The translations under genes were made by a program, and so were the position numbers. Below the pieces are notes generated by a model that did not search any database, had not been told where the DNA came from, and saw nothing but the letters and a program-made list of their open reading frames with translations. A DNA stretch of 64,000 nucleotides from Stagnimonas sp. Lineage in GTDB: Bacteria; Pseudomonadota; Gammaproteobacteria; Nevskiales; Nevskiaceae. Shown in pieces: positions 1-19,436 of the stretch; position 1 is the first letter of the stretch, and each line of letters begins with the position of its first letter. The stretch is taken from contig JAUYNO010000055.1 of NCBI GenBank assembly GCA_030696045.1, positions 46,175-110,174 on the forward strand, read 5' to 3'.

Positions 1-811
1 GGCCGGCGCCGGCACTGCCGAGGGCCAGGCCCAGCGCCTGCCAGCGCAGCACCTCGGCGACACTCAGGGGCGCGGCGAAGCCCAGGGCCTTGCCGTATTC
101 CGGAGCCAGGTTCACGAACAGCGCCGAGACGTACCAGATCGGCACCCCGACCAGGATGACCGCGACGAAGCGGCGGCGCAGCACCGCGTCCCCGAGCAGG
201 CGCCGCAGGCTGCCGGCATCGGCCCGGCCCGGCTGGAACAGGGCCGACTCGGTCAGCACCCGCAGCCGCAGCGCCAGCACCCCCAGACCCAGGCCGCCAC
301 CGATCAGGTAGGCCGTGCGCCAGTCCAGCCACTGCCCGACATAGGACGCGACCAGGGCGCCGACCAGGCCGAGGAAGGAGATCACCGTGGTGCCGTAGCC
401 GCGCGCGCGCTTGGGCAAGAGTTCGGCGATCAGCGTGATGCCGGCGCCCAGCTCGCCGGCCAGACCGATCCCGGCCAGCAGGCGCAGCAGGGCGTACTGC
501 TCGACGCTGGTGACGAAGGCATTGGCGATGTTGGCCAGAGAGTAGAGCGCGATGGTGGCGATCAGCGCGCGCCGGCGGCCATAGCGGTCCCCGACCCAGC
601 CCCAAAAGAAGCCGCCGATCAGCATGCCGGCCATCTGCAGGTTGAGCAGGGCCAGACCCCAGTCGGTGTTGGCCTGCCCCACCACCCCCAGTTCGCGCAG
701 CGAGGCGACCCGGACGACGCCGAAGATGACAATGTCGTAGAGATCGACGAAGTAGCCCAGCGCCGCCGCCACGACCGCCAGCAGCTGGGCCTTGCGCGTC
801 GTAGGGTTCAC
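1..811 (-). CDS. MFS transporter (N-terminal part; runs off the window start)
   Basis: Not in the ORF track; read by hand from GTG 811 (TTG 820 possible): VNPTTRKAQLLAVVAAALGYFVDLYDIVIFG...GGFFWGWVGDRYGRR...LAGIGLAGELG, i.e. MFS motif A (GDRYGRR) and a TM4-type motif. Confidence 0.88.
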   Translation of the reverse strand, partial: MNPTTRKAQLLAVVAAALGYFVDLYDIVIFGVVRVASLRELGVVGQANTDWGLALLNLQMAGMLIGGFFWGWVGDRYGRRRALIATIALYSLANIANAFVTSVEQYALLRLLAGIGLAGELGAGITLIAELLPKRARGYGTTVISFLGLVGALVASYVGQWLDWRTAYLIGGGLGLGVLALRLRVLTESALFQPGRADAGSLRRLLGDAVLRRRFVAVILVGVPIWYVSALFVNLAPEYGKALGFAAPLSVAEVLRWQALGLALGSAGAG

Positions 812-818
812 TGAGTCC

Positions 819-961
819 AAAGCCCGTGAAGAAATCGTAGCGAGCATGGCCTGCTGCAAGGAATAGCAGCGCAGCAAGCGCAGCGCACTCCAGTGCGTGA
901 GCATTGCGAGCAGCGCGTGACGCCGCAGCAGGTCAGCGCAGTAGATTTATTCACGGGCTTT
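819..961. mobile_element. MITE-like element (143 bp) with 18-bp terminal inverted repeats
   Basis: AAAGCCCGTGAAGAAATC (819-836) and GATTTATTCACGGGCTTT (944-961) are inverted repeats with 1 mismatch. The element fills the phaB-MFS gap and encodes no transposase. Confidence 0.65.
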
Positions 962-1695
962 CATGCCGACATGAACAGGCCGCCGTTCACCGGGATGTTG
1001 GCGCCGGTGATGTAGCCGGCCTGTTCGGCGCAGAGAAAGACGACCACCCGCGCGATCTCCGCCGGCAAGGCCAGGCGCCCGAGCGGGATCTGCGCCCGGA
1101 TCTTGGCCAGCAGCTCGGGCCGGATCGCCGCCGTCATCGGCGTCTCGACATAGCCGGGCGACACGGTGTTGACGGTCACGCCCTGCCCCGCCCCTTCCTG
1201 CGCCAGCGCCATGCTGAACCCGTGCAGGCCGGCCTTGGCCGCCGAGTAGTTGGCCTGGCCGAACTGACCCTTCTGACCGTTCACCGAGGCGATGTTGACG
1301 ATGCGGCCGTAGCCGCGCGCGCACATTCCGGTGAACAGCGGCTGGGTGACGTAGAAGGCGGCGTCGAGATTGGTGCCGATCACCTCGCGCCACTGGCTCG
1401 GGCTCATCCTGGCGAAGCGGGCGTCGCGGGTGATGCCGGCGGCATTGACCAGCACCGCGTAGCCGCCGTCCTGCTGCTCCAGCGCGCAGACCAACTGGCT
1501 GGCGGCCTCACCATCGGCCAGATCGCAGAACGCGATCTCGACCGCTTCGAGCCGCGAGCGCAGCTCGGCCAGCCCTGGCTGCTCGGAGGGATGGCCGATC
1601 ACCGTCACCGCCATGCCGTCGTCGCGCAGCTGGCGCGCGATCTCCGCACCGATGGCGCCGGTGCCGCCGGTCACCAGGGCTCGGCGCCGGCTCAT
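961..1695 (-). CDS. phaB: Acetoacetyl-CoA reductase (SDR family)
   Basis: TGGTGAIG NAD(P)-binding motif, NAAGITRD, SVNGQKGQFGQANYSAAKAG (YxxxK), and a C-terminal GANIPVNGG end typical of PhaB/PhbB. Confidence 0.85.
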   Translation of the reverse strand: MSRRRALVTGGTGAIGAEIARQLRDDGMAVTVIGHPSEQPGLAELRSRLEAVEIAFCDLADGEAASQLVCALEQQDGGYAVLVNAAGITRDARFARMSPSQWREVIGTNLDAAFYVTQPLFTGMCARGYGRIVNIASVNGQKGQFGQANYSAAKAGLHGFSMALAQEGAGQGVTVNTVSPGYVETPMTAAIRPELLAKIRAQIPLGRLALPAEIARVVVFLCAEQAGYITGANIPVNGGLFMSA

Positions 1696-1696
1696 C

Positions 1697-3148
1697 TCAG
1701 CGCCCCTTCCCGCGGCGGCCGGCGTACTGCTCGGGGGCCGTGGGGTCGAGCTGCCGCTCCAGGCTGTACATGGCTTCTTCCTTTTCCAGGCTGATGTCGA
1801 AGTCCAGCACCAGGGGCTTCGACTGCCGGCCGTCCGGCGTGATCGCCACCGCCTGCAAGCGCAGCGGCGCGGCGATATAGATCGGATGCCCGGCCTGGTA
1901 CAGCGCCGAACCGCTGGCCGGCGCGGTGCCGCTGGTGGTGTAGGTGATGAAGGCGGCCGGGTCGCTGCTTTCCAGGCGCACTTCCTGAGCCTGGGCGTAG
2001 ACGCCGCCGGCCGGGGTCGCGGTGAGCGTCGGCTCGCCTGCGGACCGGTAGCCGGCCTGGCGGGCGAACCGCAGCAGGGGGCTGGCGAGGCCGCTCTGGG
2101 GATCCAGCGCGAAGCAGCTGACTGGCGACTCCGCGCCCAGGCTCAGCTCCTGGACGGCCGGCGTGCTCCGCTGCGGATACTGCCCGCCCGCCGCGCAATG
2201 CAGGCCGGCGCTGGCGGGCTCCGGCCGCAGCCGGTCACCGCTGCGCAGCACGCGCGGCGCGCGCGCCCGGGGCAAGGGCTCGCCGCTGTCGGCGAGGAAT
2301 TTCAGCATCGCGTCCATGGTCGCCGGCTCCCGGGGCAGGTCCATGTGGTCGAACCAGCGGCCCCGCTCCCGGTTGAACGCCAGGTTGTAGGCCCCGTCCA
2401 GCGCCGGGCTGTCCTGGTAGGGCTTGGGGTAGAACACATCGCCCCAGCCGCTGCCGTCGTAGAGCGTCATGTAGCGGGTCGGCCCCGGGGTCTCGCCCAG
2501 GCGGTTGAGCTGGGCCAGCCAGGGCGAGCCCGGCGCCAGCTCCCAGGACGCCGCGCGCTGCTGGCCGCGTGGATAGGCGCTGGCGGTCCACACCCCGTGG
2601 TTGCCACCGGCGGCGCCGATGAAGTTGCGCACCCGGTGGAAGCTGTTGGTCTGCATCATCCATTGCCGCACCAGGGTGACGCCCAGCGAGTGGCTGATGA
2701 TGTCGACCTGGCGCACCGGCACCCCGCGCCGCTTCGACAGGTAGTCCATGACGCTGTTGACGATGCGGTCGATGCTGGCGACCGAGAGATCGTTGGAGTC
2801 GAAATAATGGACGTGGTCCCAGCCATGCCCCAGGGCCCAGAGCTCGTCCTTGCCGTAGCCCTGCGCCAGGAAGTACTCGCGCGCCGGCAGCCAGTAGCGG
2901 GCCGACACGGTGTTGCCGTGGACGAAGATCACCGGCGTGCGATACACGCCGCTCGACTCGCCGCCGCCGAAGCCCGGCATCGGCAACTCGGTCTCGGCTG
3001 AGCGCGGCGGCGTGTAGTCGGGCGGAAAATCACGCAGCTCCGGCACCGGCTGCCCGAGCGCCGGCAGCAGCACCTGGCGCGGCGGGATACAGGCGCTCAG
3101 CGCCAGCAGCAGGCCCAGGCCCAGCGCGCGCAGCGCGGTCGGGCTCAC
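1697..3148 (-). CDS. Lipoprotein alpha/beta hydrolase (Lipase_2 / PhaZ7-like) with C-terminal chitobiase/Fn3-associated Ig-like domain
   Basis: Lipobox LLALSAC; oxyanion segment PVIFVHGN; nucleophile elbow DIISHSLG; candidate Asp (YDGSGWGDV) and His (FDHMDL). The C-terminal ATPAGGVY...ITYTTSGTAP...LRLQAVA matches the CHB_HEX_C/Fn3-associated pattern. Confidence 0.75.
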   Translation of the reverse strand: MSPTALRALGLGLLLALSACIPPRQVLLPALGQPVPELRDFPPDYTPPRSAETELPMPGFGGGESSGVYRTPVIFVHGNTVSARYWLPAREYFLAQGYGKDELWALGHGWDHVHYFDSNDLSVASIDRIVNSVMDYLSKRRGVPVRQVDIISHSLGVTLVRQWMMQTNSFHRVRNFIGAAGGNHGVWTASAYPRGQQRAASWELAPGSPWLAQLNRLGETPGPTRYMTLYDGSGWGDVFYPKPYQDSPALDGAYNLAFNRERGRWFDHMDLPREPATMDAMLKFLADSGEPLPRARAPRVLRSGDRLRPEPASAGLHCAAGGQYPQRSTPAVQELSLGAESPVSCFALDPQSGLASPLLRFARQAGYRSAGEPTLTATPAGGVYAQAQEVRLESSDPAAFITYTTSGTAPASGSALYQAGHPIYIAAPLRLQAVAITPDGRQSKPLVLDFDISLEKEEAMYSLERQLDPTAPEQYAGRRGKGR

Positions 3149-4377
3149 GGCGCCCAGAACAGGTAGACGAAGCGCAGCTCGGCGTAGGGCGAGGCCGAGG
3201 CGGCGGCGGCTTCCTGCACCCCGAACAGGGTGGTGCTTAGCTGCGAGATCGAGTTGTCGCCGGTGCCGTTGTTGTTGCGGTCAGCGCCCGGGCAGTCACT
3301 CACGCCGCAGACGTCGTAGATCACGTCGATCTGGCTGCCGCGCCCCGAGATCGGCTTGGCGATGCGGAACTGCAATACCGAGGAACTGCGATAGACGTAG
3401 GAAATGCCGGCGCTGAGCAGGGTCGCCTGCACGCCCCGGTCCTCGTAGGGGCCGCTGCGCGGTGCCAGATAGAAGGCGTCCAGCGCCGGCGTGTTGCAGA
3501 CATCGGAGCCCAGCCCGAGCGCGGCGCATAGGGTATCCGGCGCCAGCGGCTGATCCTTGAAGTTGACCGTGACCTGGTCGTAACCGTTGTGCCCCACCGA
3601 CTTGTGGAAGGAATAGCCAATGTCGGCGAACCAGTGCTCGCTGAACTTCCAGGCGAAGTTGGCCTCGGCGTTCCACCAGTCGGCGATCCGCGTCGGCGTG
3701 GTGCCGCCGAAGGAGGGATGGGAATTGTCGCCGTTGAACTGGTAGGCCACGGTGGCATCGACGAACAGGCGCCCGAACAGCTCGCCGTGGAAGGCCAGCT
3801 GCGGAATCACGCTGCGGTAGTTGGTGCCGATATTGAGCATGGCATCGGTGTCGTACTCGCCCAGCGGCTCCTTGAACGTGGTCGCGAACAGGCCGTTGAA
3901 CTTCACCGGACCCAGGCGGTACTCGCTGCTGTAGATGCCGCAGAGCCCATACAGATCGAGCAGGCCGTTGCTGCCGGGCCGGGCGCCGAACAGGCGGCCC
4001 CGGTCGGCGATCTGCTCGGTGTTCTGCTGGTAGCCGAAGCCACTGATCAGCCGACAGAACTGCGAGTGGTCGCGCAGGTAGGGAATGCCGGTATCGCGAA
4101 AGACATTGCCGACCCACAGCACCTTGAACAGCGCCAGGCCGACATCGGTGCTCGCCCCAGCCGGCACGAAGGGCACGCCGACGCGGACGGTATTGCCCTC
4201 GCGGTCGAACACCTTCTCGATCTCCGAGAAGATGAAGGTGGTCTCGGTGTAGGTCCCGTTCGCCTGCACCGCGTACTCCGACAGATGCGGGGTGAAGATC
4301 AGCCCGGCCTGCGCCCGCGCCGGCTGCAGGGCCAGCGCCAGCACCAGGCCGACGATCAGCGTGTGCAGCCGGGGCAT
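3145..4377 (-). CDS. COG4313 (Phenol_MetA_deg-like) outer-membrane beta-barrel channel
   Basis: Start moved to ATG 4377 (MPRLHTLIVGLVLALALQPARA, signal peptide). Carries the family-type motif PLGEYDTDAMLNIGTN, amphipathic beta-strands and an aromatic C-terminus (RFVYLFWAP). Stop overlaps the lipase start. Confidence 0.65.
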   Translation of the reverse strand: MPRLHTLIVGLVLALALQPARAQAGLIFTPHLSEYAVQANGTYTETTFIFSEIEKVFDREGNTVRVGVPFVPAGASTDVGLALFKVLWVGNVFRDTGIPYLRDHSQFCRLISGFGYQQNTEQIADRGRLFGARPGSNGLLDLYGLCGIYSSEYRLGPVKFNGLFATTFKEPLGEYDTDAMLNIGTNYRSVIPQLAFHGELFGRLFVDATVAYQFNGDNSHPSFGGTTPTRIADWWNAEANFAWKFSEHWFADIGYSFHKSVGHNGYDQVTVNFKDQPLAPDTLCAALGLGSDVCNTPALDAFYLAPRSGPYEDRGVQATLLSAGISYVYRSSSVLQFRIAKPISGRGSQIDVIYDVCGVSDCPGADRNNNGTGDNSISQLSTTLFGVQEAAAASASPYAELRFVYLFWAP

Positions 4378-5609
4378 GGGTAGGCGTCTCCGAGTCCGAA
4401 CTGCCAGGCCAGGCTCAGGGCCCAGCGCGGCGAGGCATAGCTGCGCGCCGCGCCCAGGCCGTCCACCAGCACCGTGCCGCCCTCGCTGAGCACGCAGCCG
4501 ACACCACCCGGCACGCAACCGGCCGGGGTGCGGTCGGTATAGGGCAGCAGGAACTGGCCGCTCTTGCCGGACAGGGGCTGGCTGTAATGCAGGCCCAGCA
4601 GCAGGCGCTGGCTAGCGAACCACTGCAGGCCGCCGCCGACTTCCCGCAAGGCGGTGCCGCCGTCGCGATAGCTGCCGGGGGTCGGGAAGTTGTCGGACAG
4701 CAGTTCGGCCGGGTCCGGCGCCACCACCACCGGCGCGGGTGCATTGGGCGAGAAGCGCGGGTTCTCGTACAGATTGCGGCCACCGTGGCGGTCGTAGCCG
4801 TAGGCCGTCAGATAGACGCCCGACCAGAGCCGCTGGCTGAGGCTGAGGTCGATGATGCGATCGTCGCCTTGGTTGGCGGGTTCGAGCGCGCCGAAGGCCG
4901 GGTCGTAGTTCTGGAAATACTCGCGATAGCGGATGCCGGCCTCGATATAGCTGCCGGGGCGCGGCTGCCAGTGCCCGCCGAGCTGGACCTGCGCGGCCCA
5001 GGTATTGCGGCCGCTGCTGGCGGGCGCATCGCGGTCGTAGCTGCCGAACGGCGCGGTCAGCCCCAGCAGGGCCAACAGCGAATAGGGCGGCCGGGCGCCG
5101 CCGCGGGTGGCGCTCACCGGCGCGCCGAGCAGGAAGCTGCCGAACTCGAAACCTAGGTCGCCTAGGCCACTGCCGTTGTTGCGCAGATCGTCGGCCTCGG
5201 TGCTGGCATCGTCGGAGCTATCGGCGACGAAATCGGCGAGCACGCCGCGGGTGCGCACCCGGTTATGGCGCAGTGTCAGCCGCGCCAGGTGGGTGCGGCT
5301 GGACAGGAAGGGAATGCCCTCGCCCTCGAACAGCGGAAAGTGCCAGTTGAACCGGGCGGTGAAGCTGCTCTCGGGAAACGCGCTCTGGCCACCGGCCTGC
5401 GGCGCGGCGCTGGGCTGCTCATGGCCCTGCTGATCGTAGCTGCGGTCGCGGTCGTCCTGGCCGTAGCTGGTTTCGAGATACAGCCCCGGATGCAGCGGCA
5501 GGTAACGGCCGAACGCGGGCGGCGGATCGGCCGCCAGCGCCGGGGTGATGCACAGCAGGGCCGGCAGCGCCAGCAGCGCCCGGCAAGCGGGTGACCATCG
5601 ACAGCTCAT
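4356..5609 (-). CDS. COG4313 (Phenol_MetA_deg-like) outer-membrane beta-barrel channel
   Basis: Signal peptide; motifs SGLGDL and APFGSYDRDAPASSGRNTW; alternating beta-strands; Cys-containing loops and tail (CVPGGVGC, CPGCTR). Overlaps the next gene by 22 bp. Confidence 0.62.
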   Translation of the reverse strand: MSCRWSPACRALLALPALLCITPALAADPPPAFGRYLPLHPGLYLETSYGQDDRDRSYDQQGHEQPSAAPQAGGQSAFPESSFTARFNWHFPLFEGEGIPFLSSRTHLARLTLRHNRVRTRGVLADFVADSSDDASTEADDLRNNGSGLGDLGFEFGSFLLGAPVSATRGGARPPYSLLALLGLTAPFGSYDRDAPASSGRNTWAAQVQLGGHWQPRPGSYIEAGIRYREYFQNYDPAFGALEPANQGDDRIIDLSLSQRLWSGVYLTAYGYDRHGGRNLYENPRFSPNAPAPVVVAPDPAELLSDNFPTPGSYRDGGTALREVGGGLQWFASQRLLLGLHYSQPLSGKSGQFLLPYTDRTPAGCVPGGVGCVLSEGGTVLVDGLGAARSYASPRWALSLAWQFGLGDAYPCPGCTR

Positions 5610-5767
5610 CAGCGGTGCCTACTCCGTCCAGTGGGTGGTGTTCCCCGGAACCACCACCGATCCGCGCTCCCGTGTCGGACCGGGCCCGGTCATCCTTGAA
5701 CCAGCCCTGCGTATTTTGATACCTCTCGCGGGGCGCAGCTTATCGCGGCCGGCGCCGCTTGTGGCGG

Positions 5768-6694
5768 CTACTGCAGCACCACCCCGCGCTCGGCGAGCCG
5801 GGCGCGCAAGGCCGGCAGCGCCGCCTGGGCAGCGCGCTCGCCGGCGAGGATGGCGCGGTGCTTGCCCTCGAAGTCGGTGGAGCTGACGTCGCGCATGTCC
5901 GGCACCACCAGCACATCGGCCAGCGGGTACTCGGACTCGCGGATGGTCTTGCCCATGATCCCGAAAGTCTTCATCACCACGTCGAGCTTGCCCTGGGCCT
6001 CGCGCTGGTCCGGCGGCGCGGCGACATCCACCGCGATCACGAAGTCGGCGCCCATCTGCCGGGCATAGCGGATCGGCACCACGCTGACCAGGCCGCCATC
6101 GACATAGTCCTCCTCGCCAATGCGGGCCGGCGTGAACACCCCCGGCACGGCGGACGAGGCCTGCACCGCCAGGCCGGTTTCGCCGCGCTCGAACAGCACC
6201 GCCTCGCCGGTCTTGAGCTTGACCCCGACGCAGGCGAAGCGCGGCTTGAGCTGTTGCAAGGTCTTGTTCTTCACCGCCTGGTTGATGAACAGGCGCAGGG
6301 CGTCGCCCTTGATCAGGCCCTTGCCGAACAGGGTCCAGTCGGAAACCGTGGCGCGGTCGAGATCGAAGGCGATCTGCTGCAGGTCGAAGCCCGAGTAGCC
6401 GGCGGTGTAGAGCGCGCCGGCGACACTGCCGGCGCTGGTGCCGACCACGATCTCCGGCTTCAGACCATGGCTTTCCAGCACCTTGATGACGCCGATGTGG
6501 GCGAAGCCGCGTGCCGCGCCACCACCCAGGGCCAGGCCGATCCTTGGCGGCGGCGGTGGCGTGGGCTGCACCACCGGCGGTGGCTCTACCGGCGGCGGCA
6601 CCGGCTTCGCGCCGAACAGGCCGCAGCTGGCCAGCAGCAGCGGCAGCAACGGGGCCAGGGCTCGCCACGGCAGGCGGGCACGAATCTGGGACAT
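5768..6694 (-). CDS. Patatin-like phospholipase, predicted lipoprotein
   Basis: Start moved to ATG 6694 (MSQIRARLPWRALAPLLPLLLASC, lipobox). Has GLALGGGAARG, GTSAG (nucleophile) and DGG motifs, with a Pro-rich linker after the Cys. Confidence 0.88.
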   Translation of the reverse strand: MSQIRARLPWRALAPLLPLLLASCGLFGAKPVPPPVEPPPVVQPTPPPPPRIGLALGGGAARGFAHIGVIKVLESHGLKPEIVVGTSAGSVAGALYTAGYSGFDLQQIAFDLDRATVSDWTLFGKGLIKGDALRLFINQAVKNKTLQQLKPRFACVGVKLKTGEAVLFERGETGLAVQASSAVPGVFTPARIGEEDYVDGGLVSVVPIRYARQMGADFVIAVDVAAPPDQREAQGKLDVVMKTFGIMGKTIRESEYPLADVLVVPDMRDVSSTDFEGKHRAILAGERAAQAALPALRARLAERGVVLQ

Positions 6695-6800
6695 GGGAAG
6701 GCAGGCAATCCTTGAAGTGCGGCGATTGTAAGCGGCGGCTTCGCTTCGCGGCCGGCATCGGCGATGCTTTCGGCCTGCTCCGCCACGCCCGAGTACCGCC

Positions 6801-8504
6801 ATGCGCCAACTGCTCTGCCTGCTACTTGTCGCCACCACCCTGCCCGCCCTGGCCGGTGATCGGGTCACCGGGCGCGGCTTCGCCAGCCGCAGCGAGGTGA
6901 TCGCCCTGCACGGCATGGCGGCGACCAGCCATCCGCTCGCCACCAATGCCGCGCTCGACATCCTCAAGGCCGGCGGCAGCGCGGTGGATGCCGCCATCGC
7001 CGCCAATGCCATGCTCGGTCTGGTCGAACCGACCGGCAATGGCGTCGGCGGCGACCTGTTCGCCATCGTCTGGGATGCGCGCACACGGCGGCTCCACGGG
7101 CTCAACGCAAGCGGTCGCTCGCCCAAGAGCCTGTCGCTGGAAAAGCTGCGCGAACTGCTGAAGGCGCAAGGCCTGGAGCGGCTGCCTCCGCTGGGGCCGC
7201 TGCCGGTCAGCGTGCCGGGCTGCGTCGACGGCTGGTTCGAGCTGCACGACCGGTTCGGCCGGCTGCCGATGAAGAAAATCCTGGCTCCCGCCATCCGCAC
7301 CGCCCGCGAGGGTCATCCGGTCAGCGAGCTGATTGCCTACTACTGGGGTCGCAGCCTGCCGAGGCTGTCGAAGTTCCCGGGCTACACCGAACAGATGACG
7401 CTGGCCGGCAAGGCGCCGAAGAAGGGCGAAATCTGGAAGAACCCGAATCTCGCCAACACCCTAGACACCATCGCCAGGGGCGGTCGCAAGGCCTTCTATC
7501 AGGGCGAGATCGCCAGGACGATTGCCGACTACCTGCAGGCGCAGGGCGGCTATCTATCGACCGAGGACCTCGCCAGTCACCGGAGCGAATGGGTAGAGCC
7601 GGTCTCGACCAACTATCGCGGCTACGAGGTCTGGGAACTGCCACCCAACTCGCAGGGCATTGCCGCGCTGCAGATGCTCAACCTGCTCGAAGCCTACGAC
7701 CTGGCCAAGGCCGGCTTCGGCAGTCCGGAGCACCTGCACTGGTTCATCGAGGCCAAGAAGATCGCCTTCGAGGACCGGGCGAAGTTCTATGCCGATCCGG
7801 CCTTCAACCAGTTGCCGGTCGCCGATCTCATCAGCAAGCCCTACGCCGAGCAGCGCCGCAAGCTGCTCGACCCGGCCAGGGCCGCCAAGCACTTCGACGC
7901 CGGCAATCCAGCCCTGCGCCAGGGCGACACCATCTACCTCACCACCGCCGACGCCGAGGGCAATATGGTGTCGCTGATCCAGAGCAACTATCGCGGCATG
8001 GGCAGCGGCATGACCCCGCCAGGCCTGGGCTTCATCCTGCAGGACCGGGGCGAAATGTTCAGCCTGGAAGATGGCCACGCCAACGTCTACGCACCGGGCA
8101 AGCGGCCGTTCCAGACCATCATCCCGGCCTTCATCACCAAGGACGGTTTACCCTGGGTCAGCTTCGGCGTGATGGGCGGCGACATGCAGCCGCAGGGCCA
8201 TGTGCAGATCGTGCTGAACCTGATCGACTTCGGCATGAACCTGCAGGAAGCCGGCGACGCGCCGCGCATCTACCACACCGGGTCGAGTGAACCCACTGGC
8301 GAGCGGATGACGGATGGCGGGGTGGTGAATCTGGAGAGCGGCTTTCCGCCCGAATCGGTGCGCAGCCTGCTCGACAAGGGCCACAAGCTCGGCTGGGACC
8401 TGGGCGGCTATGGCGGCTATCAGGCGATCCTGCGTGACCCCAAGACCGGCGCCTACTACGGGGCTTCGGAGTCGCGGAAGGATGGGATGGCGGCGGGGTA
8501 TTGA
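6801..8504 (+). CDS. ggt: Gamma-glutamyltransferase family protein, exported
   Basis: Signal peptide; GGSAVDAAIA, GVGGDLF, the autocleavage Thr in GDTIYLTTADAEGNMVSLIQS, PGKRPFQT, GVMGGDMQPQGH. Confidence 0.92.
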   Translation: MRQLLCLLLVATTLPALAGDRVTGRGFASRSEVIALHGMAATSHPLATNAALDILKAGGSAVDAAIAANAMLGLVEPTGNGVGGDLFAIVWDARTRRLHGLNASGRSPKSLSLEKLRELLKAQGLERLPPLGPLPVSVPGCVDGWFELHDRFGRLPMKKILAPAIRTAREGHPVSELIAYYWGRSLPRLSKFPGYTEQMTLAGKAPKKGEIWKNPNLANTLDTIARGGRKAFYQGEIARTIADYLQAQGGYLSTEDLASHRSEWVEPVSTNYRGYEVWELPPNSQGIAALQMLNLLEAYDLAKAGFGSPEHLHWFIEAKKIAFEDRAKFYADPAFNQLPVADLISKPYAEQRRKLLDPARAAKHFDAGNPALRQGDTIYLTTADAEGNMVSLIQSNYRGMGSGMTPPGLGFILQDRGEMFSLEDGHANVYAPGKRPFQTIIPAFITKDGLPWVSFGVMGGDMQPQGHVQIVLNLIDFGMNLQEAGDAPRIYHTGSSEPTGERMTDGGVVNLESGFPPESVRSLLDKGHKLGWDLGGYGGYQAILRDPKTGAYYGASESRKDGMAAGY

Positions 8505-8508
8505 AACA

Positions 8509-8964
8509 ATGGCCAATCCCTTGCGGGAAGCGGTGAAGCGCCGCTTCTACCCTTTCGCTGAGTCAAGCGGCTTTCTGCGCGCGAAGTCGAGCCATCCGCA
8601 TTTCACAAGCTTTCGGCGGGTGCGCGGCGACATCGCTCAAGTCTTCGACATTCAGTGGGACAAGTACGGCCGGCCCAGTTTCGTGATCAACTTCGGCGAG
8701 GTCTGCCTGAATGAGCCGGAGTCATCCGCCGCCGCCGTCGAGACCCAACACTGCCCGGCCCTGCTCCGCCTGATACCCGACAAGGGCAGCCCGCGATGGT
8801 GGCGCCTCCGGAAACCGTGGCTTGAAGCGCTGGCGACCGGCCGCCTCAGGCACGAACCCAACGACGTGGTGGATCAGGTCATCACCTATTTCATGGAAGC
8901 CGAGACCTGGTGGGCCGAGAAGGTCGAAGGACCTCACGTTCGGCTGCAGTGGCGCATTCGCTGA
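8509..8964 (+). CDS. Hypothetical protein (DUF4304-like)
   Basis: ATG 8509 lies 4 bp after the ggt stop. 151 aa with FRRVRGDIAQVFDIQWDKYGRPSFVINFG, resembling DUF4304-type proteins; codon usage looks less GC-biased than its neighbours. Confidence 0.55.
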   Translation: MANPLREAVKRRFYPFAESSGFLRAKSSHPHFTSFRRVRGDIAQVFDIQWDKYGRPSFVINFGEVCLNEPESSAAAVETQHCPALLRLIPDKGSPRWWRLRKPWLEALATGRLRHEPNDVVDQVITYFMEAETWWAEKVEGPHVRLQWRIR

Positions 8965-9068
8965 CAAGCGATCACGGCCGACCTGGAACCTCCGCTGTCT
9001 CCGCGCAGCAAGGTGGGTGCAGCGTAGCGGACCCGCCCTGCGCGCTTGAACGATGACAACGAGCGAAG

Positions 9069-9084
9069 TGGCAAGCTTTTCGCT
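9069..9084 (+). promoter_or_regulatory. Putative sigma54 (-24/-12) promoter
   Basis: TGGCAAGCTTTTCGCT has GG and GC at the canonical spacing of TGGCAC-N5-TTGC and lies 45 bp upstream of ATG 9129. Confidence 0.5.
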
Positions 9085-9128
9085 AGCCTGACGAGGTTGT
9101 CATCCTCTCCATCAACCTGGACTCACTC

Positions 9129-9275
9129 ATGCGCAAACTTCTGCTCGCCGGCCTGATCGCCGCCTCCGTTGCCGCCCCGACCGCCGCCTTCGCTGCCATC
9201 GGTCCGGACAGCCTGGCCTACTGCGACATCCTGGAATGGCTCGGCTTCGTCAACGTCATGGCCTGCGAAGGCTAA
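9129..9275 (+). CDS. Small secreted peptide (48 aa): signal peptide plus 26-aa mature part with two Cys
   Basis: Below the ORF-track cutoff: MRKLLLAGLIAASVAAPTAAFA|AIGPDSLAYCDILEWLGFVNVMACEG*. Clean n/h/c signal regions with an AFA cleavage site and GC3-rich codons. Confidence 0.65.
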   Translation: MRKLLLAGLIAASVAAPTAAFAAIGPDSLAYCDILEWLGFVNVMACEG

Positions 9276-9304
9276 AAGCGGCAAGGCCGCGGCGCTGGGG
9301 CAAC

Positions 9305-10669
9305 TCAGCGTCGCGGCATCATGCCCGGCGGCAGCTTGCCGGCCAGCGAGCGCATCATCTTCGCCATGCCGCCACCGGCCATCTTCTTCATCATGTCGCG
9401 GGTCTGGTCGAACTGGCGTAGCAGCTGATTGACCTGCTGCACTTCAACGCCCGATCCGGCGGCGATGCGCCGCTTGCGGCTGGCCTTGATGAGGTCCGGA
9501 AACTGGCGCTCCTGCACGGTCATCGAGTTGATGATGGCGACCGTGCGCTTGATCTGTTTCTCGGGATTGGCCTGCTTGAGCTGGGCCTGCATGTTGGCGC
9601 CACCGGGCAGCTTCTCCAGCATCGACTCGATGCCGCCCATGTTCTGCATCTGCACCATCTGCTCGCGGAAGTCGGCGAGGTCGAAGCCCTTCTTGCTGCG
9701 GAGCTTGGCAGCGAGCTTGGCGGCCTTCTCGGTATCGACCCGCTGCACCGTCTCCTCGATCAGGCTGAGCATGTCGCCCTGGCCGAGGATGCGCGCCGCG
9801 ATGCGGTCCGGGTGGAAGACTTCGAGTTTGTCGCTCTTCTCGCCGACGCCGATGAACTTGATCGGCGCGCCGGTCACCTGCCGCACGCTCAGCGCCGCGC
9901 CACCGCGCGAGTCGCCGTCGGCCTTGGTGAGCACGACGCCGGTCAGCGGCACGCGGTCGGCGAAGGCGCGCGCGGTGCGGGCGGCGTCCTGGCCGGTCAT
10001 TGCATCGACCACGAACAGGGTCTCGACCGGATTGAGCGCGGCATGCAGGCCGGCCAATTCGACCATCATCTCCTCGTCGACCGTGGTACGGCCGGCGGTG
10101 TCGACGATCAGCACGTCGGCGAAGGATTTTTTGGCGTGCTCGACGGCGGCGCGGGCGATGGACTCGGGCGTCTGGCCGACTTCGGACGGGAAGAACTCCA
10201 CCCCCACCTGCCCCGCGACGATGCGCAGCTGCTCGATGGCGGCCGGACGGTAGACGTCGCAGGAGACGACGATGACGTTCTTCTTCTCACGCTCCTTCAG
10301 CAGCTTCGCCAGCTTGCCGACGGTGGTGGTCTTGCCGGCACCCTGCAGGCCGGCCATCAGCAGGATGGCGGGCGGCTGGGCGCGCAGGTTGAGCGGCACC
10401 ACTTCGCCGCCCAGGGTTTCGGTAAGCGCCTGCTGCACCATGCGCAGGAAGGCCTGGCCCGGCGTGAGGCTCTGGCTGATCTCGACGCCGAGAGCCTTGG
10501 CCTTCACCGACTCGATGAAGGTCTTGATGACCGGCAGGGCGACGTCGGCTTCCAGCAGCGCCATGCGCAGCTCGCGCGCGGCACCGTTGATCTGGTCTTC
10601 GGTCAGGCGACCCTGGCCGCGCAGGCTGTCGAGAACGCCGGACAGGCGCTGGCTGAGTGATTCAAACAT
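9305..10669 (-). CDS. ffh: Signal recognition particle protein Ffh
   Basis: MFESLSQRL start, GLQGAGKTT, DTAGR, TKADGDSRGG, Met-rich M domain with SRKRRIAAGSG. Confidence 0.98.
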   Translation of the reverse strand: MFESLSQRLSGVLDSLRGQGRLTEDQINGAARELRMALLEADVALPVIKTFIESVKAKALGVEISQSLTPGQAFLRMVQQALTETLGGEVVPLNLRAQPPAILLMAGLQGAGKTTTVGKLAKLLKEREKKNVIVVSCDVYRPAAIEQLRIVAGQVGVEFFPSEVGQTPESIARAAVEHAKKSFADVLIVDTAGRTTVDEEMMVELAGLHAALNPVETLFVVDAMTGQDAARTARAFADRVPLTGVVLTKADGDSRGGAALSVRQVTGAPIKFIGVGEKSDKLEVFHPDRIAARILGQGDMLSLIEETVQRVDTEKAAKLAAKLRSKKGFDLADFREQMVQMQNMGGIESMLEKLPGGANMQAQLKQANPEKQIKRTVAIINSMTVQERQFPDLIKASRKRRIAAGSGVEVQQVNQLLRQFDQTRDMMKKMAGGGMAKMMRSLAGKLPPGMMPRR

Positions 10670-10708
10670 GGGGTATGCGACTCGAAAGGAAGGCGGCCGG
10701 CGCGCCGC

Positions 10709-11476
10709 TTACAACATGAAGATCTCGCCGGATTCGAGGTGATGATAATTCCAGCCGGCCAAAACCGCCTCGCACTGGCGCTCGATCAGCGCCTCGGTGC
10801 CGGGCTTGTGATGGGTCAGCAGCAGTTGCGGCCGGTGCCGGAGCTTTTGCAGTTCGCGCGCCAGCAGGCTGGGCGTGAAGTGCTTGGAGGTCGCACCCAG
10901 TTCTTCCTGCTCGTCCGGGAAGGCGATCTCGATCATCAGCAGGTCCAGGCTCGGCAGGGCATTGAGCGACTGCCACAGGTTCTCGCAGGCCCAGGTGTCG
11001 CCGCTGAAGGCGAACACGCCGGTGGGCGTCTGGATCGCCACGCCCACCGCCGGCACGGTGTGCTTGACCTCGAAACTGTGCAGGCGGCGCGCCAGGCCCA
11101 GGTCCAGCTCGCGGCCGGGTGGCAGCTCGCGCCAGCGCAGCAAGGGGTGCTCGGGACTCGGCAACACCGAGAAGTCCGGCCAGATCTTCCAGTTGAAGAT
11201 GTGGTCGCGGATCGCCGTCAGCGTCAGGCTGGCGGCGTGGACCTCGATCGGCGAGTCGATCAGGTCGAACAGGTTGTCGGCCATGAAGGCCAGGCCGCAG
11301 ACATGGTCGAGGTGCGAATGGGTCAGCACCACATGACGGATGCGGCGCATCTGCGACAGCGCGAGATCGCCAACGCCGGTGCCGGCATCGATCAAGACCT
11401 CGTCATCGATCAGCACGCTGGTGGTGCGCAGCCCGGGCCCCACCCCACCGCTGCACCCCAGAACCTTGATCCGCAT
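10709..11476 (-). CDS. Class II 3',5'-cyclic-nucleotide phosphodiesterase (metallo-beta-lactamase fold)
   Basis: MRIKVLGCSGG...TTSVLIDDEVLIDAGTGV, THSHLDHV (HxHxDH), NHIFNWKIWPDF-type segment (DHIFNWKIWPDF), HTVPAVG, FSGDT. Confidence 0.8.
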   Translation of the reverse strand: MRIKVLGCSGGVGPGLRTTSVLIDDEVLIDAGTGVGDLALSQMRRIRHVVLTHSHLDHVCGLAFMADNLFDLIDSPIEVHAASLTLTAIRDHIFNWKIWPDFSVLPSPEHPLLRWRELPPGRELDLGLARRLHSFEVKHTVPAVGVAIQTPTGVFAFSGDTWACENLWQSLNALPSLDLLMIEIAFPDEQEELGATSKHFTPSLLARELQKLRHRPQLLLTHHKPGTEALIERQCEAVLAGWNYHHLESGEIFML

Positions 11477-11581
11477 TGAATTCCGCGACCCGGTTGGAAG
11501 CTCGATTCGAGTCTAGCACCAAGTCTTTCCGCGCCCGCCGGCGGCGCGGGGCGAACGCTACGGCGGTGCTATTCTCAAACC

Positions 11582-12376
11582 ATGTCGTTGCCCATCCTGC
11601 CGCTGGCGCTGGCCGCCCTGATCGCCTACACCGTCGCGGCCTGGCGGGCCGCCCACGGCGCCACCAACAATCAAGGAACGCTGGCCTTGCTGGTCGGCCT
11701 GGGCCTGCACGCGCTGGTGCTGGTCGGCAGCCTGCAGCTCGCGGGCGGGCGCCTGGGCCTGAGTCAGGCGCTGTCCCTGGTCACCTGGCAGACCGCGTTG
11801 CTGCTGGCACTGCTGTGGCGGGTCCAGACCCTGTGGCCACTGCGCACCGCGATCTACCCGCTGGCCGCCGCTGGCGCGCTGGTGGCGGCGCTGTGGCCCT
11901 CGCAGACCGGCGCCCAGGCGCCGCACGACTGGAAGATCGCCCTGCACGTGGCGCTGTCGATCTTCGCCGCCGGCCTGCTGACCCTGGCCGCTGCCCAGGC
12001 GGTGGCGCTGGCCGTGTTCGACCGCCTGCTGCACCGGCCCGACCAGCTCACCCGGGCGCTGCGCATGCCGCCGATGCAGTCGGCCGAGGACTGGCTGTTC
12101 CAGCTGATCGCCGCCGGCTTCTTCGTGCTGTCGCTGGCCCTGCTGTCGGGCCTGATCTTTGTCGACAACCTGTTCGCCCAGCACCTGGCGCACAAGACGG
12201 CGCTGTCGATCCTGGCCTGGGCCATCTTCGGCGCCTTGCTGCTGGGCCGCCGCCGCTGGGGCTGGCGCGGCCGGCGCGCGGTGCGCTGGGCGCTGTCGGG
12301 CTATGTCGCCTTCCTGCTCGCCTACTTCGGCAGCAAGCTGGTGCTGGAGCAACTCCTGGGTCGGCACTGGAGTTAG
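11582..12376 (+). CDS. ypjD: Cytochrome c assembly family inner-membrane protein (YpjD/CcsA-like)
   Basis: About 8 TM helices; LAHKTALSILAW and WGWRGRRA motifs; conserved divergent position next to ffh. Confidence 0.88.
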   Translation: MSLPILPLALAALIAYTVAAWRAAHGATNNQGTLALLVGLGLHALVLVGSLQLAGGRLGLSQALSLVTWQTALLLALLWRVQTLWPLRTAIYPLAAAGALVAALWPSQTGAQAPHDWKIALHVALSIFAAGLLTLAAAQAVALAVFDRLLHRPDQLTRALRMPPMQSAEDWLFQLIAAGFFVLSLALLSGLIFVDNLFAQHLAHKTALSILAWAIFGALLLGRRRWGWRGRRAVRWALSGYVAFLLAYFGSKLVLEQLLGRHWS

Positions 12377-12400
12377 CGGCCCGTTCCCGGGCGACTCCGC

Positions 12401-12430
12401 TTGACACCAAGCCCCGCCCTTCGCTACCTA
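12401..12430 (+). promoter_or_regulatory. Possible sigma70 promoter for the CNNM gene
   Basis: Perfect -35 TTGACA at 12401; only a weak -10 (TACCTA) 18 bp downstream. Confidence 0.3.
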
Positions 12431-12464
12431 TGACAGCCCTCGTGGTCACCGGCTGACGCCGCTC

Positions 12465-13742: not shown

Positions 13743-13789
13743 ACCGAGGCAGTCGCTGACGCGGCAGCGCCCCGGCGCAACGCGAGGAC

Positions 13790-15151: not shown

Positions 15152-15237
15152 GGGCCGTGCGGCGAGTCATGTTCTGGCGGCGGGGAATCGGGTTAGTATC
15201 CCCGGCAATTACAACGCAGAAACCGAGGGAGTGACGC

Positions 15238-17895: not shown

Positions 17896-17898
17896 GCG

Positions 17899-18720: not shown

Positions 18721-18749
18721 TCGGCTTTTTGGATCAGGGAAAGAAATCT

Positions 18750-19436
18750 ATGGGCAAGCTCATCGTCACGGAGGCCGACGGCAAGAGCCGGGAGCTCGCG
18801 CTCGACAAGGAGCGCGTGACCATCGGCCGCCATGCCGACAACGACATCGCCTTGAACGACAAGGCGGTGTCCGGACACCACGCGGTGGTGATCACCATCC
18901 TCTCCGATTCCTTCCTGGAAGATCTCGACTCCACCAACGGCACCATGGTCAACGGCAAGCAGGTCGCCAAGCACCCGCTGTCGCACGGTGACACCGTCAG
19001 CATCGGCCGCAACAGCCTGCGCTACGAGGCCGAGCAGGGCGGCGACCAGGAGGATTTCGAGAAGACCATGATCATGCGCCCGGGCCAGGTGTCCGCGGCG
19101 ATGGGCAGCCCGCGTCCGGCCGCACCGGCACCCGGCGCCGCGCCGGCGATGGCCGAGGCCAAGCCGCTCAACGGCCGGCTGCGGGTCGACAGCGGCTCCA
19201 ATGCCGGCAAGGAACTGGAGTTGACCAAGGCGCTGACCACCATCGGCAAGCCCGGCGTGCAGGTGGCGGCGATCACCAAGCGTGCCGACGGCTACTACAT
19301 CGTCCATGTCGGCGGTGCCGCCGGTGGCAAGCGGCCGCTGGTCAACGGCGCCGAGATCGACACCCAGGCGCGCAAGCTGAGTCCCGGCGACGTGGTCGAA
19401 CTCGCCGGCACCAAGATGTCCTTCCTGATCAGCTGA
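18750..19436 (+). CDS. FHA-domain protein (FHA, linker, second FHA-like domain)
   Basis: Start moved to ATG 18750. FHA motifs TIGR, VSGHHA, DLDSTNGT; Ala/Pro linker; C-terminal LTTIGKPG...LVNG...LSPGDVVELAG. Confidence 0.9.
   Translation: MGKLIVTEADGKSRELALDKERVTIGRHADNDIALNDKAVSGHHAVVITILSDSFLEDLDSTNGTMVNGKQVAKHPLSHGDTVSIGRNSLRYEAEQGGDQEDFEKTMIMRPGQVSAAMGSPRPAAPAPGAAPAMAEAKPLNGRLRVDSGSNAGKELELTKALTTIGKPGVQVAAITKRADGYYIVHVGGAAGGKRPLVNGAEIDTQARKLSPGDVVELAGTKMSFLIS

Follow-up and report, generated by a model that had tools for sequence, protein, structure and literature searches.

What might a bacterium gain from keeping two outer-membrane channels, a lipoprotein hydrolase, a PhaB-type dehydrogenase, and an MFS transporter side by side? 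The question is raised by positions 1–6694 of a 64,000-nucleotide stretch of gammaproteobacterial DNA from a groundwater metagenome—hereafter the window—where six genes, including a patatin, lie on the minus strand and ggt follows divergently at 6801. A preliminary description had read the locus as a polyester scavenging and uptake operon of five tightly joined same-strand genes, with a patatin gene 158 bp upstream of barrel 1; the coordinates, listed here, agree on both counts.

1..811, minus strand: MFS transporter, 5' part; the 3' end lies outside the window start
819..961, no strand assigned: MITE-like insertion, 143 bp, flanked by the stop codon of the SDR gene and the start of the MFS gene
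961..1695, minus strand: PhaB-type SDR, 244 aa, cytoplasmic
1697..3148, minus strand: Lipase_2 lipoprotein, putative serine esterase, 483 aa (lipobox, Pfam, AF2)
3145..4377, minus strand: barrel 2, COG4313/Phenol_MetA_deg, 410 aa (Pfam, AF2/Foldseek)
4356..5609, minus strand: barrel 1, COG4313/Phenol_MetA_deg, 417 aa (Pfam; paralogue of barrel 2)
5610..5767, minus strand: intergenic gap, 158 nt, 5' of barrel 1; probable promoter/regulatory region
5768..6694, minus strand: patatin-like phospholipase lipoprotein, 308 aa (Pfam; RssA-like)

The SDR and hydrolase genes are separated by 1 nt (1695/1697), hydrolase and barrel 2 overlap by 4 nt (3145/3148), and the two barrels overlap by 22 nt (4356/4377)—spacing that would suit co-transcription. 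Aligned with the corresponding gap in the related locus L005, the gap at 5610–5767 shows conserved blocks and a column identity of 79%, and it probably serves as the promoter/regulatory region of the five-gene unit; it contains no sigma-70 consensus match and no Rfam match. At the other end, the element reported as a MITE lies exactly at the SDR/MFS junction, where relatives show a 4-nt overlap (ATGA). Its length and its 18-nt terminal inverted repeats (arms 819–836 and 944–961, 94% complementary) bear out the description in part, but no second copy was found in the window or in the fetched loci and no target-site duplication is visible around it. The likely MFS start is GTG 811, the point where homology to relatives begins; two in-frame ATGs further upstream, at 847 and 904, are both inside the inserted element.

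The hydrolase was rightly described as a lipoprotein: it has the lipobox L-S-A-C20, with C20 invariant across 52 homologues, and matches Pfam Lipase_2 (44.1) and CHB_HEX_C_1 (45.1). Its catalytic candidates are an HGN oxyanion motif, the nucleophile S154 in SHSLG, and the invariant D231/D237 and H268. Beyond the Lipase_2 domain the protein continues in beta-sandwich modules, one of them a CHB_HEX_C_1/Fn3_assoc Ig-like domain—a type associated with carbohydrate enzymes—and ends in a basic, conserved C-terminal tail. The label PhaZ7-like is apt at the family level; in a profile search of the PDB, PhaZ7 (E 1.3e-15) ranks above LipA (2.4e-8) and is, by sequence, the nearest solved relative. The label does not hold more closely than that, as the protein scores 45.7 bits against the PhaZ7 equivalog model NF050060 (cutoff 450). 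The top Foldseek matches of its AF2 model (pLDDT 86.7) are PhaZ7, lipase 5h6g/5h6b, CALB, and LipA; the TM to the PhaZ7 core is ~0.4, and the ordinary lipases fit about equally.

Both barrels carry what read as ordinary signal peptides and, as proposed, belong with COG4313, matching PF13557 at 45.4 (barrel 1) and 33.4 (barrel 2; cutoff 22). They share 23% identity (E 3e-11) and are paralogues of COG4313 type. Barrel 2 is an enlarged member, and its AF2 model (pLDDT 84.6) resembles the COG4313 channel Pput2725 (4rl8), its best Foldseek match (E 2.5e-11, target-normalised TM 0.80); FapF is second. Four cysteines of barrel 2 are invariant (C108, C146, C284, C294). [quoted passage not shown]

For the SDR, the assignment to PhaB is upheld. 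It passes TIGR01829 (308.5; cutoff 302.1), scores 223–225 bits to solved PhaB structures versus ≤183 for FabG-type enzymes, and keeps NGQKGQFGQxNY, PhaB's motif for substrate, as well as the tyrosine of PGY and the arginine of AIR; the cofactor loop differs, with GHPSE replacing PhaB's GPNSPRR. We therefore predict an enzyme of the acetoacetyl-CoA reductase/(R)-3-hydroxyacyl-CoA dehydrogenase type. The MFS protein is likewise predicted to be an importer: it matches Pfam MFS_1 (81.9 bits) and Sugar_tr (59 bits), a symporter-type family, and is 65–84% identical to the MFS following the SDR in L003, L005, L008, L020, L090, and L092. Its top NCBIfam match is TIGR00895, the aromatic-acid/H+ symporter subfamily (102.7; cutoff 418).

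How much of this arrangement is shared? Among 15 distinct orthologous loci (48–78% identity, from Nevskiales and metagenomes), the order barrel 1–barrel 2–hydrolase is kept in all 15, and a barrel 1 orthologue precedes barrel 2 in every relative examined. Wherever an orthologous locus has sufficient flanking sequence it shows this order, so the gene arrangement is not a matter of chance. Cultured carriers include Sinimarinibacterium thermocellulolyticum HSW-8 and Fontimonas thermophila. All five genes are conserved together; a dehydrogenase is always beside the core, and its type, like that of the carrier, is swapped in some relatives. The SDR is adjacent in 13 of the 15 loci; in L089 it lies divergently just upstream, and in L016 a fatty-acyl-CoA-reductase-like fusion with an SDR, located downstream, replaces the PhaB-type enzyme. 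PhaB-type enzymes are the usual partner, with L017 and L018 having a YdfG-like 3-hydroxy-acid dehydrogenase instead (393.8 bits; cutoff 411), and BdhA-type dehydrogenases flank distant members of the hydrolase family; YdfG-like and BdhA-type enzymes act on free short 3-hydroxy acids. As for the inner-membrane carrier, an SSF protein takes the place of the MFS in L089, and the distant L035/L021 clusters have a Liv-type SBP with an ABC importer. (In L035 the hydrolase has LPATG as its sortase anchor.) With importers of three different classes standing in for one another, transport is best read as inward, the direction first proposed.

Upstream of the core, most relatives carry genes for a TetR regulator, a KASIII (NF005308/PRK06840, 450 bits), and an acyl-CoA ligase, although the ligase is missing from L091 and KASIII from L016 and L017. 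The ligase scores highest to long-chain fatty-acid-CoA ligase models, and its best solved relative is 8wev/8weu (330 bits; ~40% identity, judged by eye from the alignment), deposited as 'feruloyl-CoA synthetase' and 'fatty-acyl-CoA synthase' (8weu). The similarity of the TetR to FasR/FadR/FabR-type regulators stays below cutoff throughout. In the window's own subclade the cluster has neither ligase nor KASIII, and the SDR and MFS are kept. The patatin (Pfam Patatin 116.6; NF007623 RssA 127, cutoff 272; lipobox L-A-S-C) is indeed present where the description placed it, but it occurs only in the window/L001, L005, and L092, with TetR–KASIII–ligase at that position in other orthologous loci; it is a neighbour specific to this subclade, outside the conserved core.

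The wider hydrolase family offers clues to the substrate. In L027 a bona fide bdhA (TIGR01963, 315.5; cutoff 307) sits directly against the gene of a secreted hydrolase, and bdhA is directly upstream of the hydrolase in L025, L034, L041, L044, and L077. In L058, L053, and L065 the hydrolase adjoins class III phaE/phaC, and L042 has a fragment of phaC. L033 and L050 have a PF10503 PHB esterase right beside the hydrolase, and in L027 and L008 one lies in the vicinity. These neighbours, together with the swapped 3-hydroxy-acid dehydrogenase types, lend independent support to a PHB/3-hydroxy-acid substrate; on the other side, the polyester reading leaves KASIII unexplained, and the TetR, KASIII, and ligase genes fit fatty-acid scavenging as well.

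We propose the following route. The lipoprotein esterase, sorted to the outer membrane and facing either the surface or the periplasm, would bind substrate with its Ig-like C-terminal module and cut ester bonds with its PhaZ7/LipA-type core. The two enlarged barrels would pass poorly soluble substrate or products through the outer membrane, and the importer-type MFS would move the released acid to the cytoplasm. After CoA activation—by the cluster's own ligase in most relatives, by a ligase encoded elsewhere in the window's subclade—the dehydrogenase would interconvert (R)-3-hydroxyacyl-CoA and 3-ketoacyl-CoA, presumably running towards the latter, with thiolysis next. Taken together, the relatives' upstream genes, the dehydrogenase and carrier swaps, and the PHB-gene neighbours argue for 3-hydroxyalkanoate esters being imported and catabolised. 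Among possible substrates, (R)-3-hydroxyalkanoate esters come first; these could be native PHB/PHA debris, 3HB oligomers, or hydroxy-acid esters of a similar kind, and we judge this reading to be close to an even call.

Several points are counted against this 3-hydroxyalkanoate-ester reading. The window has no phaC, phaA, bdhA, or ligase gene: as the description had noted for phaA and phaC, tblastn with class III phaA, phaE, and phaC gave no match, and Pfam on 37 of its ~53 ORFs returned housekeeping genes only. PhaB usually works reductively, with NADPH, and the 3HB monomer is hydrophilic, making a COG4313 channel superfluous. Also entered here are the KASIII of most orthologous clusters, the ligase's nearness to fatty-acyl/feruloyl-CoA synthetases, the L016 fusion, the hydrolase's equivalog failure and equal lipase fit, and patatin genes in two unrelated contexts.

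Much of this belongs to the main rival, general lipid scavenging by a FadL/FadD logic, which we consider unlikely. A true lipase would act on acylglycerols, wax esters, or phospholipids, aided in some clades by the patatin; the barrels would import free fatty acids, the ligase would trap them as acyl-CoA, and KASIII with a ketoreductase-type SDR would run one activate–elongate–reduce cycle into fatty-acid/lipid synthesis, under an acyl-CoA-responsive TetR repressor. Ligase, KASIII, and 3-ketoacyl reductase would be three consecutive steps and are co-located in most orthologous clusters; the ligase and TetR matches, the two independent patatin contexts, the lipase folds, the L016 reductase-like gene, and a desaturase and acyltransferase close by in L089 all fit. 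Yet the SDR is PhaB-type rather than FabG-type and gives way to YdfG-like enzymes in the orthologous cluster (with BdhA-type ones beside distant family members), Sugar_tr-type MFS, SSF, and Liv-type ABC carriers suit small carboxylates rather than long-chain fatty acids, PHB genes are tied to the wider family, and the window's subclade retains SDR and MFS in clusters free of ligase and KASIII.

The same KASIII, AMP ligase, and ketoreductase form a classic biosynthetic trio, and could make a 3-hydroxyacyl surfactant or signal precursor that the MFS and barrels export and the lipoprotein hydrolase processes in the envelope; FapF, barrel 2's second structural match, is an export channel. This is improbable, as relatives swap in obligate importers (SBP-dependent ABC, SSF symporter), the MFS matches Sugar_tr, the cluster lacks an acyl carrier protein, acyltransferase, or synthase, and envelope genes persist where ligase (L091), KASIII (L016, L017), or both (the window's subclade) are missing.

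Scavenging of hydroxycinnamate or other phenolic esters is a shade more doubtful still. The esterase would free ferulate-like acids from plant polymers, the barrels and MFS would import them, the ligase would activate them, and the SDR would oxidise a beta-hydroxy intermediate in side-chain shortening. The names given to 8wev/8weu, the MFS's top NCBIfam match, the Ig-like domain, and the links of COG4313 members TcpY (PMC4493636) and MolK (PMC11393088) to phenolics speak for it; against it, the clusters examined contain no enoyl-CoA hydratase/lyase or ring-cleavage genes, the MFS reaches 102 against a family cutoff of 418, the SDR keeps PhaB substrate residues, and links to PHB genes prevail across the wider hydrolase family. 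Independently acting chance neighbours are highly improbable: promoter and terminator signals do not exceed shuffled controls, but the genes overlap or nearly abut, and their order is the same in 15 distinct loci with varied flanks, the most divergent of them at 48% identity.

We found no description of a barrel–barrel–hydrolase–PhaB–MFS system in the literature, and the operon is a conserved, undescribed one. We consider it likely that it represents a chromosomal, Nevskiales-type operon in which an envelope esterase, uptake, and catabolism would together serve the use of ester-linked organic acids.

Five genes on the minus strand, reading from an outer-membrane barrel to an importer-type transporter, make up the candidate uptake operon, and a patatin-like lipoprotein gene stands upstream of them. 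The features of this region are as follows, in window positions:

Crossing the window start, minus strand: MFS transporter gene
819-961, between the SDR stop and the MFS gene: MITE-like element of 143 bp with 18-nt inverted termini
961-1695, minus strand: SDR gene
1697-3148, minus strand: hydrolase gene, 483 aa, lipobox LSAC
3145-4377, minus strand: barrel 2 gene, 410 aa, ordinary signal peptide
4356-5609, minus strand: barrel 1 gene, 417 aa, ordinary signal peptide
5768-6694, minus strand: patatin-like gene, 308 aa, lipobox LASC
From 6801, divergent to the operon: gamma-glutamyltransferase gene

The preliminary description had reported tight junctions among the five same-strand genes, and these were found exactly so—a gap of 1 nt, an overlap of 4 nt, and an overlap of 22 nt; the patatin lipoprotein, with its lipobox, does lie 158 nt beyond barrel 1. 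The genes share one strand, overlap or abut, and keep their order in relatives, as expected of an operon, and are presumably co-transcribed. The public sequencing runs that contain the window sequence are DNA metagenomes only, from groundwater (the source of the window itself) and other settings, with no RNA-seq run among them. A promoter scan of the operon region found none, and predicted terminators were at the level of shuffled sequence. The 158-nt gap before barrel 1 holds blocks that are conserved in L005 (one of the fetched homologous loci, L001 to L092), a hint that a promoter of the five genes may lie there. Just upstream of the barrel 1 start, at window ~5633-5657, there is also a near-perfect hairpin of 11-12 bp (GGTGGTGGTTCC..GGAACACCACC); it is not kept in L005 and has no Rfam match, and a search of window 1-7000 against Rfam gave no match at all.

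Elsewhere the window carries housekeeping genes: ffh and radA, a trio of CHASE2 kinase, PP2C, and FHA genes, a set of flagellar genes, the RNase R gene, a gene for a TpsA-like exoprotein, purA, hflX, mutL, pgi, and panBC. The trio (15238-19436) comprises a CHASE2-domain Ser/Thr protein kinase of 885 aa, a PP2C phosphatase, and an FHA-domain protein, adjacent and on the same strand. The flagellar block (19494-34105) has minus-strand genes for FliK, FliI, FliG, and FliF and plus-strand genes for FlgE, FlgK, and a flagellin-type protein, with a SpoU-type rRNA methylase gene breaking it up at ~26-27.5 kb. The exoprotein gene (37912-41934) encodes 1340 aa with an N-terminal TPS (two-partner secretion) domain; no TpsB partner gene lies beside it, its neighbours being RNase R upstream and purA downstream.

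The barrel 1-barrel 2-hydrolase core is a real unit, since this order is kept in 15 of 15 distinct orthologous loci with usable flanks, at 48-78% identity (the window, L002, L003, L005, L008, L013, L014, L016, L017, L018, L020, and L089-L092; gene content was checked by targeted tblastn and Pfam/NCBIfam). The co-conservation in relatives on which the preliminary description depended was thus found for the core order. Full-length hydrolase homologues form a narrow clade whose named members belong to Nevskiales (Solimonas, Fontimonas, Sinimarinibacterium, and Nevskiaceae MAGs), and 50% clustering leaves the full hydrolase architecture in only two representatives.

Around this core the commonest layout is TetR-KASIII-acyl-CoA ligase-barrels-hydrolase-PhaB-type SDR-MFS, found in L003, L008, L020, and L090; L002 has the same layout without the MFS, and L091 without the ligase. 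The KASIII is assigned to NF005308/PRK06840 (450 bits against a cutoff of 315), and the TetR-KASIII-ligase start is present in most orthologous clusters, with the ligase overlapping barrel 1 (L003 4458-7582; also L002, L008, L020, L089, L090, and, less the ligase, L091). The best models for ligase and KASIII are PRK06839 and PRK06840, and PRK06841 is an SDR model; these consecutive numbers hint at an old ligase-KASIII-SDR trio. Three loci, L016, L017, and L018, have neither KASIII nor MFS, and L017 and L018 carry a YdfG-like 3-hydroxy-acid dehydrogenase (393.8 against a cutoff of 411). In L016 the hydrolase is followed by a 664-aa fusion of NAD_binding_4 ('male sterility') and SDR domains that resembles fatty-acyl-CoA reductases (11515-13509), and a Polyketide_cyc2-SDR fusion (3807-5228) lies upstream of TetR. 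In the marine locus L089 (TARA; 3339-14194) an SSF sodium:solute symporter stands in place of the MFS, and the SDR lies divergent upstream, adjoining fatty-acid desaturase and acyltransferase genes; after the hydrolase comes an unannotated 141-aa gene, and after the symporter a second Lipase_2 gene, a small one (229 aa). A subclade made up of the window, L005, and L092 has a patatin lipoprotein and a PQ-loop protein upstream, the latter absent from the window; the patatin is specific to this subclade. No KASIII or ligase is found in the clusters of this subclade, nor anywhere in the 64-kb window.

The hydrolase scores 44.1 bits with PF01674 (Lipase class 2), against a gathering score of 20.3. 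Beyond its Lipase_2 catalytic domain it has beta-sandwich modules, one matching CHB_HEX_C_1/Fn3_assoc, and then a conserved helical, basic C-terminal tail (residues ~450-483) in which R465 is invariant and Q466, Y475, R479, and G482 are nearly so. The N-terminus, LLLALSAC20-IPP, is a lipobox with no Asp at +2, and C20 is invariant in 52 homologues; from the lipobox and residue +2—the sorting rule comes from E. coli—the hydrolase is predicted to be a lipoprotein sorted to the outer membrane. Across the 52 homologues, little or no variation is seen at H77-G78-N79, S154 in SHSLG, D231/D237, and H268; the Ser and HGN align to PhaZ7, and the Asp and His are assigned by conservation only.

The term 'PhaZ7-like', used in the preliminary description, stands as a statement of relationship and fails as one of orthology. 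PhaZ7, the extracellular native-PHB depolymerase of Paucimonas lemoignei (PDB 2vtv/4brs; NF050060), is the best match of the family profile among solved structures (E 1.3e-15, residues 56-186; Bacillus LipA, 2.4e-8). The two enzymes share the Lipase_2 superfamily, a signal peptide, the TPVIF(V/I)HGN oxyanion motif, and the xHSxG nucleophile elbow with the VR(N/K)FI..AGG segment after it. However, the NF050060 equivalog is not passed (45.7 bits against a cutoff of 450, covering residues 55-189 only). With the hydrolase model (pLDDT 86.7), Foldseek gives PhaZ7 the lowest E-value (5e-9) at a target-normalised TM of 0.37-0.45, and the core fit is equal or better for LipA (TM 0.72-0.77) and lipase 5h6g/5h6b (0.67); with a TM of ~0.4, the PhaZ7 lid is apparently not recovered. 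PhaZ7 is also a free secreted, single-domain enzyme, whereas the window hydrolase is a predicted lipoprotein with ~190 extra C-terminal residues (Ig-like modules). We regard the hydrolase as a PhaZ7/LipA-type esterase by prediction, and not as a PhaZ7 orthologue.

Both barrels score above the PF13557 cutoff of 22 (barrel 1, 45.4 bits; barrel 2, 33.4 bits), in partial matches to the central part of the profile (positions ~55-189 of 242); they are paralogues with 23% identity (E 3e-11). Barrel 2, the only one of the pair to be modelled, gave an AlphaFold2 model from 53 homologues (pLDDT 84.6) whose best PDB match is the 12-stranded Pput2725 (4rl8; E 2.5e-11, target-normalised TM 0.80), with FapF (5o65), an amyloid secretion channel, second (E ~1e-7, TM 0.6-0.7). 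FapF shows that a barrel of this fold can also deal with polypeptides; its sequence identity is ~10%, no Fap genes are present, and the importers of the clusters argue for uptake. Assignment to COG4313 is therefore upheld by the Pfam matches of both and by the superposition of barrel 2 on Pput2725. The pair resembles the COG4313 channels Pput2725, TcpY, SphA, and MolK in its PF13557 match and barrel 2 fold, and TcpY and MolK share with it a catabolic, uptake-related operon context. The family is further marked by an N-terminal segment that blocks the lumen and by the transport of hydrophobic molecules. Its members have a mature length of 270-320 residues (PMC4493636). The mature window barrels, with ~385-390 residues, fall outside this range by ~100 residues, and their extra segments lie beyond the Pfam-matched core; in barrel 2 this additional loop material holds four invariant cysteines. 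Also unlike the family at large, the barrels are an obligatory paralogous pair beside a lipoprotein hydrolase, an arrangement for which no description was found in the searched literature on COG4313. Either the barrel 2 cysteines or the basic tail of the hydrolase could mediate contact between barrel and lipoprotein.

The SDR passes TIGR01829 marginally (308.5 against a cutoff of 302.1) and its L003 orthologue passes clearly (338.8); the SDR scores 217-225 bits against solved PhaBs and at most 183 against FabG-type enzymes. It is like Cupriavidus necator PhaB1 (3vzp/4n5m) in subfamily score and substrate-pocket motif: the residues that we take to form the PhaB1 pocket (Q147, F148, Q150, Y185, R195, and D94) are all conserved, with K99 replaced by R, and the motif NGQKGQFGQxNY, the PGY tyrosine, and the AIR arginine are kept. 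In contrast, all operon-linked SDR orthologues have GHPSE(x)3 at residues ~33-38 where PhaB1 has GPNSPRR, presumably its NADPH 2'-phosphate loop; cofactor preference and physiological direction may therefore differ from those of PhaB. The SDR also differs from PhaB in standing outside a phaCAB context—phaA and phaC are indeed absent from the window, as had been noted, and bdhA was not found there either. For the MFS protein only the general assignments MFS_1 and Sugar_tr hold; the top subfamily match, the TIGR00895 aromatic-acid/H+ symporter, is not passed by the partial window protein (102.7) or by the full-length L003 protein (102.6), the cutoff being 418.55.

The SDR and MFS genes overlap by ATGA in L003, L005, and L092, and the 143-bp segment between them is by this comparison an insertion in the window's lineage. 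The element has cut off the ancestral MFS start, which now heads a 5-codon remnant (MKARE, then a stop), and MFS translation must restart at GTG 811 or at the in-frame ATGs 847 or 904 within the element. Its length and its 18-nt inverted arms, 94% complementary, agree with the earlier label 'MITE'. However, no second copy was found in the 64-kb window or in loci L001-L088, and the flanks (GAGTCC and CATGCC) show no target-site duplication, so the label is reasonable but not proven.

Beyond the orthologous clusters, a metagenome scan with the family alignment gave 68 distant members of the hydrolase family, 29-39% identical over the catalytic domain. A 3-hydroxybutyrate dehydrogenase gene lies directly upstream of the hydrolase in L025, L034, L041, L044, and L077; in L027 (9066-10924) bdhA (TIGR01963, 315.5 against 307) runs right up to the start of a hydrolase gene whose product has a signal peptide. 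PHB synthesis genes are neighbours as well: L058 (1784-7724) has the order phaA-phaB-x-phaE-phaC-hydrolase with a class III PHA synthase, class III phaE and phaC adjoin the hydrolase in L053 and L065, and a phaC fragment does so in L042. The L058 hydrolase, which lacks a signal peptide, may act as a depolymerase inside the cell. A PF10503 PHB-depolymerase-family esterase adjoins the hydrolase in L033 (8961-10951) and L050 (728-2550); L027 and the orthologous locus L008 have one in the vicinity. Hydrolase, ligase, and KASIII genes follow one another in L021, L035, and L046, whereas L026, L040, and L051 have a ligase next to the hydrolase. The trios of L035 and L021 are joined by TetR, a Liv-type binding protein of the periplasm, and an ABC permease/ATPase. 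At its C-terminus the L035 hydrolase has LPATG and a hydrophobic, basic tail, which mark it as a sortase-anchored surface enzyme of a monoderm. This locus (4987-15201) has the ABC permease/ATPase and TetR on one strand, followed by the Liv-type binding protein, LPATG hydrolase, ligase, KASIII, and a second Lipase_2 hydrolase, and looks like a monoderm version of the module. In a rough neighbour-joining tree of catalytic domains, which has no support values and does not discriminate among substrates, the Nevskiales clade is monophyletic and sister to the clade that holds all of these PHB-linked loci.

By association only, we favour import and catabolism of 3-hydroxyalkanoate esters as the function of the operon. 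The tethered esterase, facing either the surface or the periplasm, would bind and cleave (R)-3-hydroxyalkanoate esters, be they debris of native PHB/PHA, oligomers, or similar esters of hydroxy acids, and the poorly soluble species would cross the outer membrane through the paired COG4313 barrels. The acid would be imported by the MFS protein and, after CoA activation, the PhaB-type enzyme would oxidise the (R)-3-hydroxyacyl-CoA, yielding the 3-keto thioester; or else the monomer could be recycled into the cell's own PHB. Three features argue for import and catabolism: the hydrolase has an envelope tether in diderms (a lipid anchor) and in monoderms (sortase) alike, the inner-membrane part is exchanged among Sugar_tr-type MFS, SSF, and SBP-dependent ABC transporters, and the usual cytoplasmic partner is a CoA ligase. 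A 3-hydroxy-acid product is suggested by three unrelated 3-hydroxy/3-oxo dehydrogenase types that accompany the hydrolase family (PhaB-type and YdfG-like in the orthologous cluster, BdhA-type beside distant members) and by its repeated proximity to PHB synthesis and degradation genes. KASIII is left without explanation by this model.

The ligase, KASIII, and ketoreductase are three formally consecutive steps, 'activate, elongate, reduce', and could instead serve to scavenge fatty acids into lipid synthesis. The ligase is similar to fatty-acyl-CoA ligases, the TetR is FasR/FadR-like, patatins occur in two contexts, the L016 fusion is acyl-CoA-reductase-like, and the hydrolase fold is lipase-like; we consider such scavenging possible, if on the unlikely side. 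We are more doubtful that the hydrolase and both barrels form one outer-membrane 'depolymerase-channel' machine, in which a FapF-like barrel would present the lipoprotein on the cell surface or dock it there, perhaps via the basic C-terminal tail, and the other barrel would take up oligomers. If real, this machine would be the first route dedicated to capturing and taking up polyester (PHB/PHA) fragments at a Gram-negative outer membrane. Biosynthesis with export, to which the importers and the clusters without ligase or without KASIII run counter, is very improbable. Use of aromatic esters, which a ligase match to 8wev ('feruloyl-CoA synthetase'), the MFS subfamily hint, and COG4313 precedents would fit, is highly unlikely, with no hydratase/lyase or ring-cleavage genes found in the clusters examined.

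Two known types of system were compared and set aside. An OleABCD/beta-lactone-type cluster does not agree with an extracytoplasmic hydrolase, a classical PhaB-type SDR that is not OleD-like, or a window with neither KASIII nor ligase; for LplT/Aas-type lysophospholipid recycling, no LplT model is among the MFS matches listed.

Import and catabolism of 3-hydroxyalkanoate esters would follow the logic of the E. coli FadL/FadD system for vectorial fatty-acid uptake, in which an outer-membrane channel for a hydrophobic acid is combined with trapping by an acyl-CoA ligase in the cytoplasm. The barrels here are COG4313 proteins, in contrast, an envelope esterase dedicated to the system and an inner-membrane symporter come in addition, and ligase and KASIII are missing from the window. 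The KASIII and ketoreductase of relatives could elongate acyl-CoA, in likeness to the PA3286 KASIII shunt of P. aeruginosa. The parts are all of known families (COG4313, Lipase_2, PhaB-type SDR, MFS, and patatin); the combination of paired enlarged COG4313 barrels, lipoprotein esterase, 3-hydroxyacyl dehydrogenase, and importer was not found in the literature searched. By kind the system would be a catabolic uptake operon.

PHB depolymerases have so far been studied as free secreted enzymes, and we know of no mechanism by which polyester oligomers or poorly soluble ester products pass the Gram-negative outer membrane. The operon is a concrete candidate for capture and uptake of polyester fragments at this membrane: a tethered PhaZ7/LipA-type esterase, two COG4313 channels, an importer, and a dehydrogenase would, if the proposal is true, constitute a concrete uptake route. 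Cultured carriers (Sinimarinibacterium thermocellulolyticum HSW-8, locus L002, and Fontimonas sp., locus L090) make the proposal open to direct testing. If it holds, the COG4313 family would gain a larger, paired, lipoprotein-associated subtype, and the gene set would serve as a marker of the turnover of polyesters or lipid esters in Nevskiales from groundwater, soil, and the sea.
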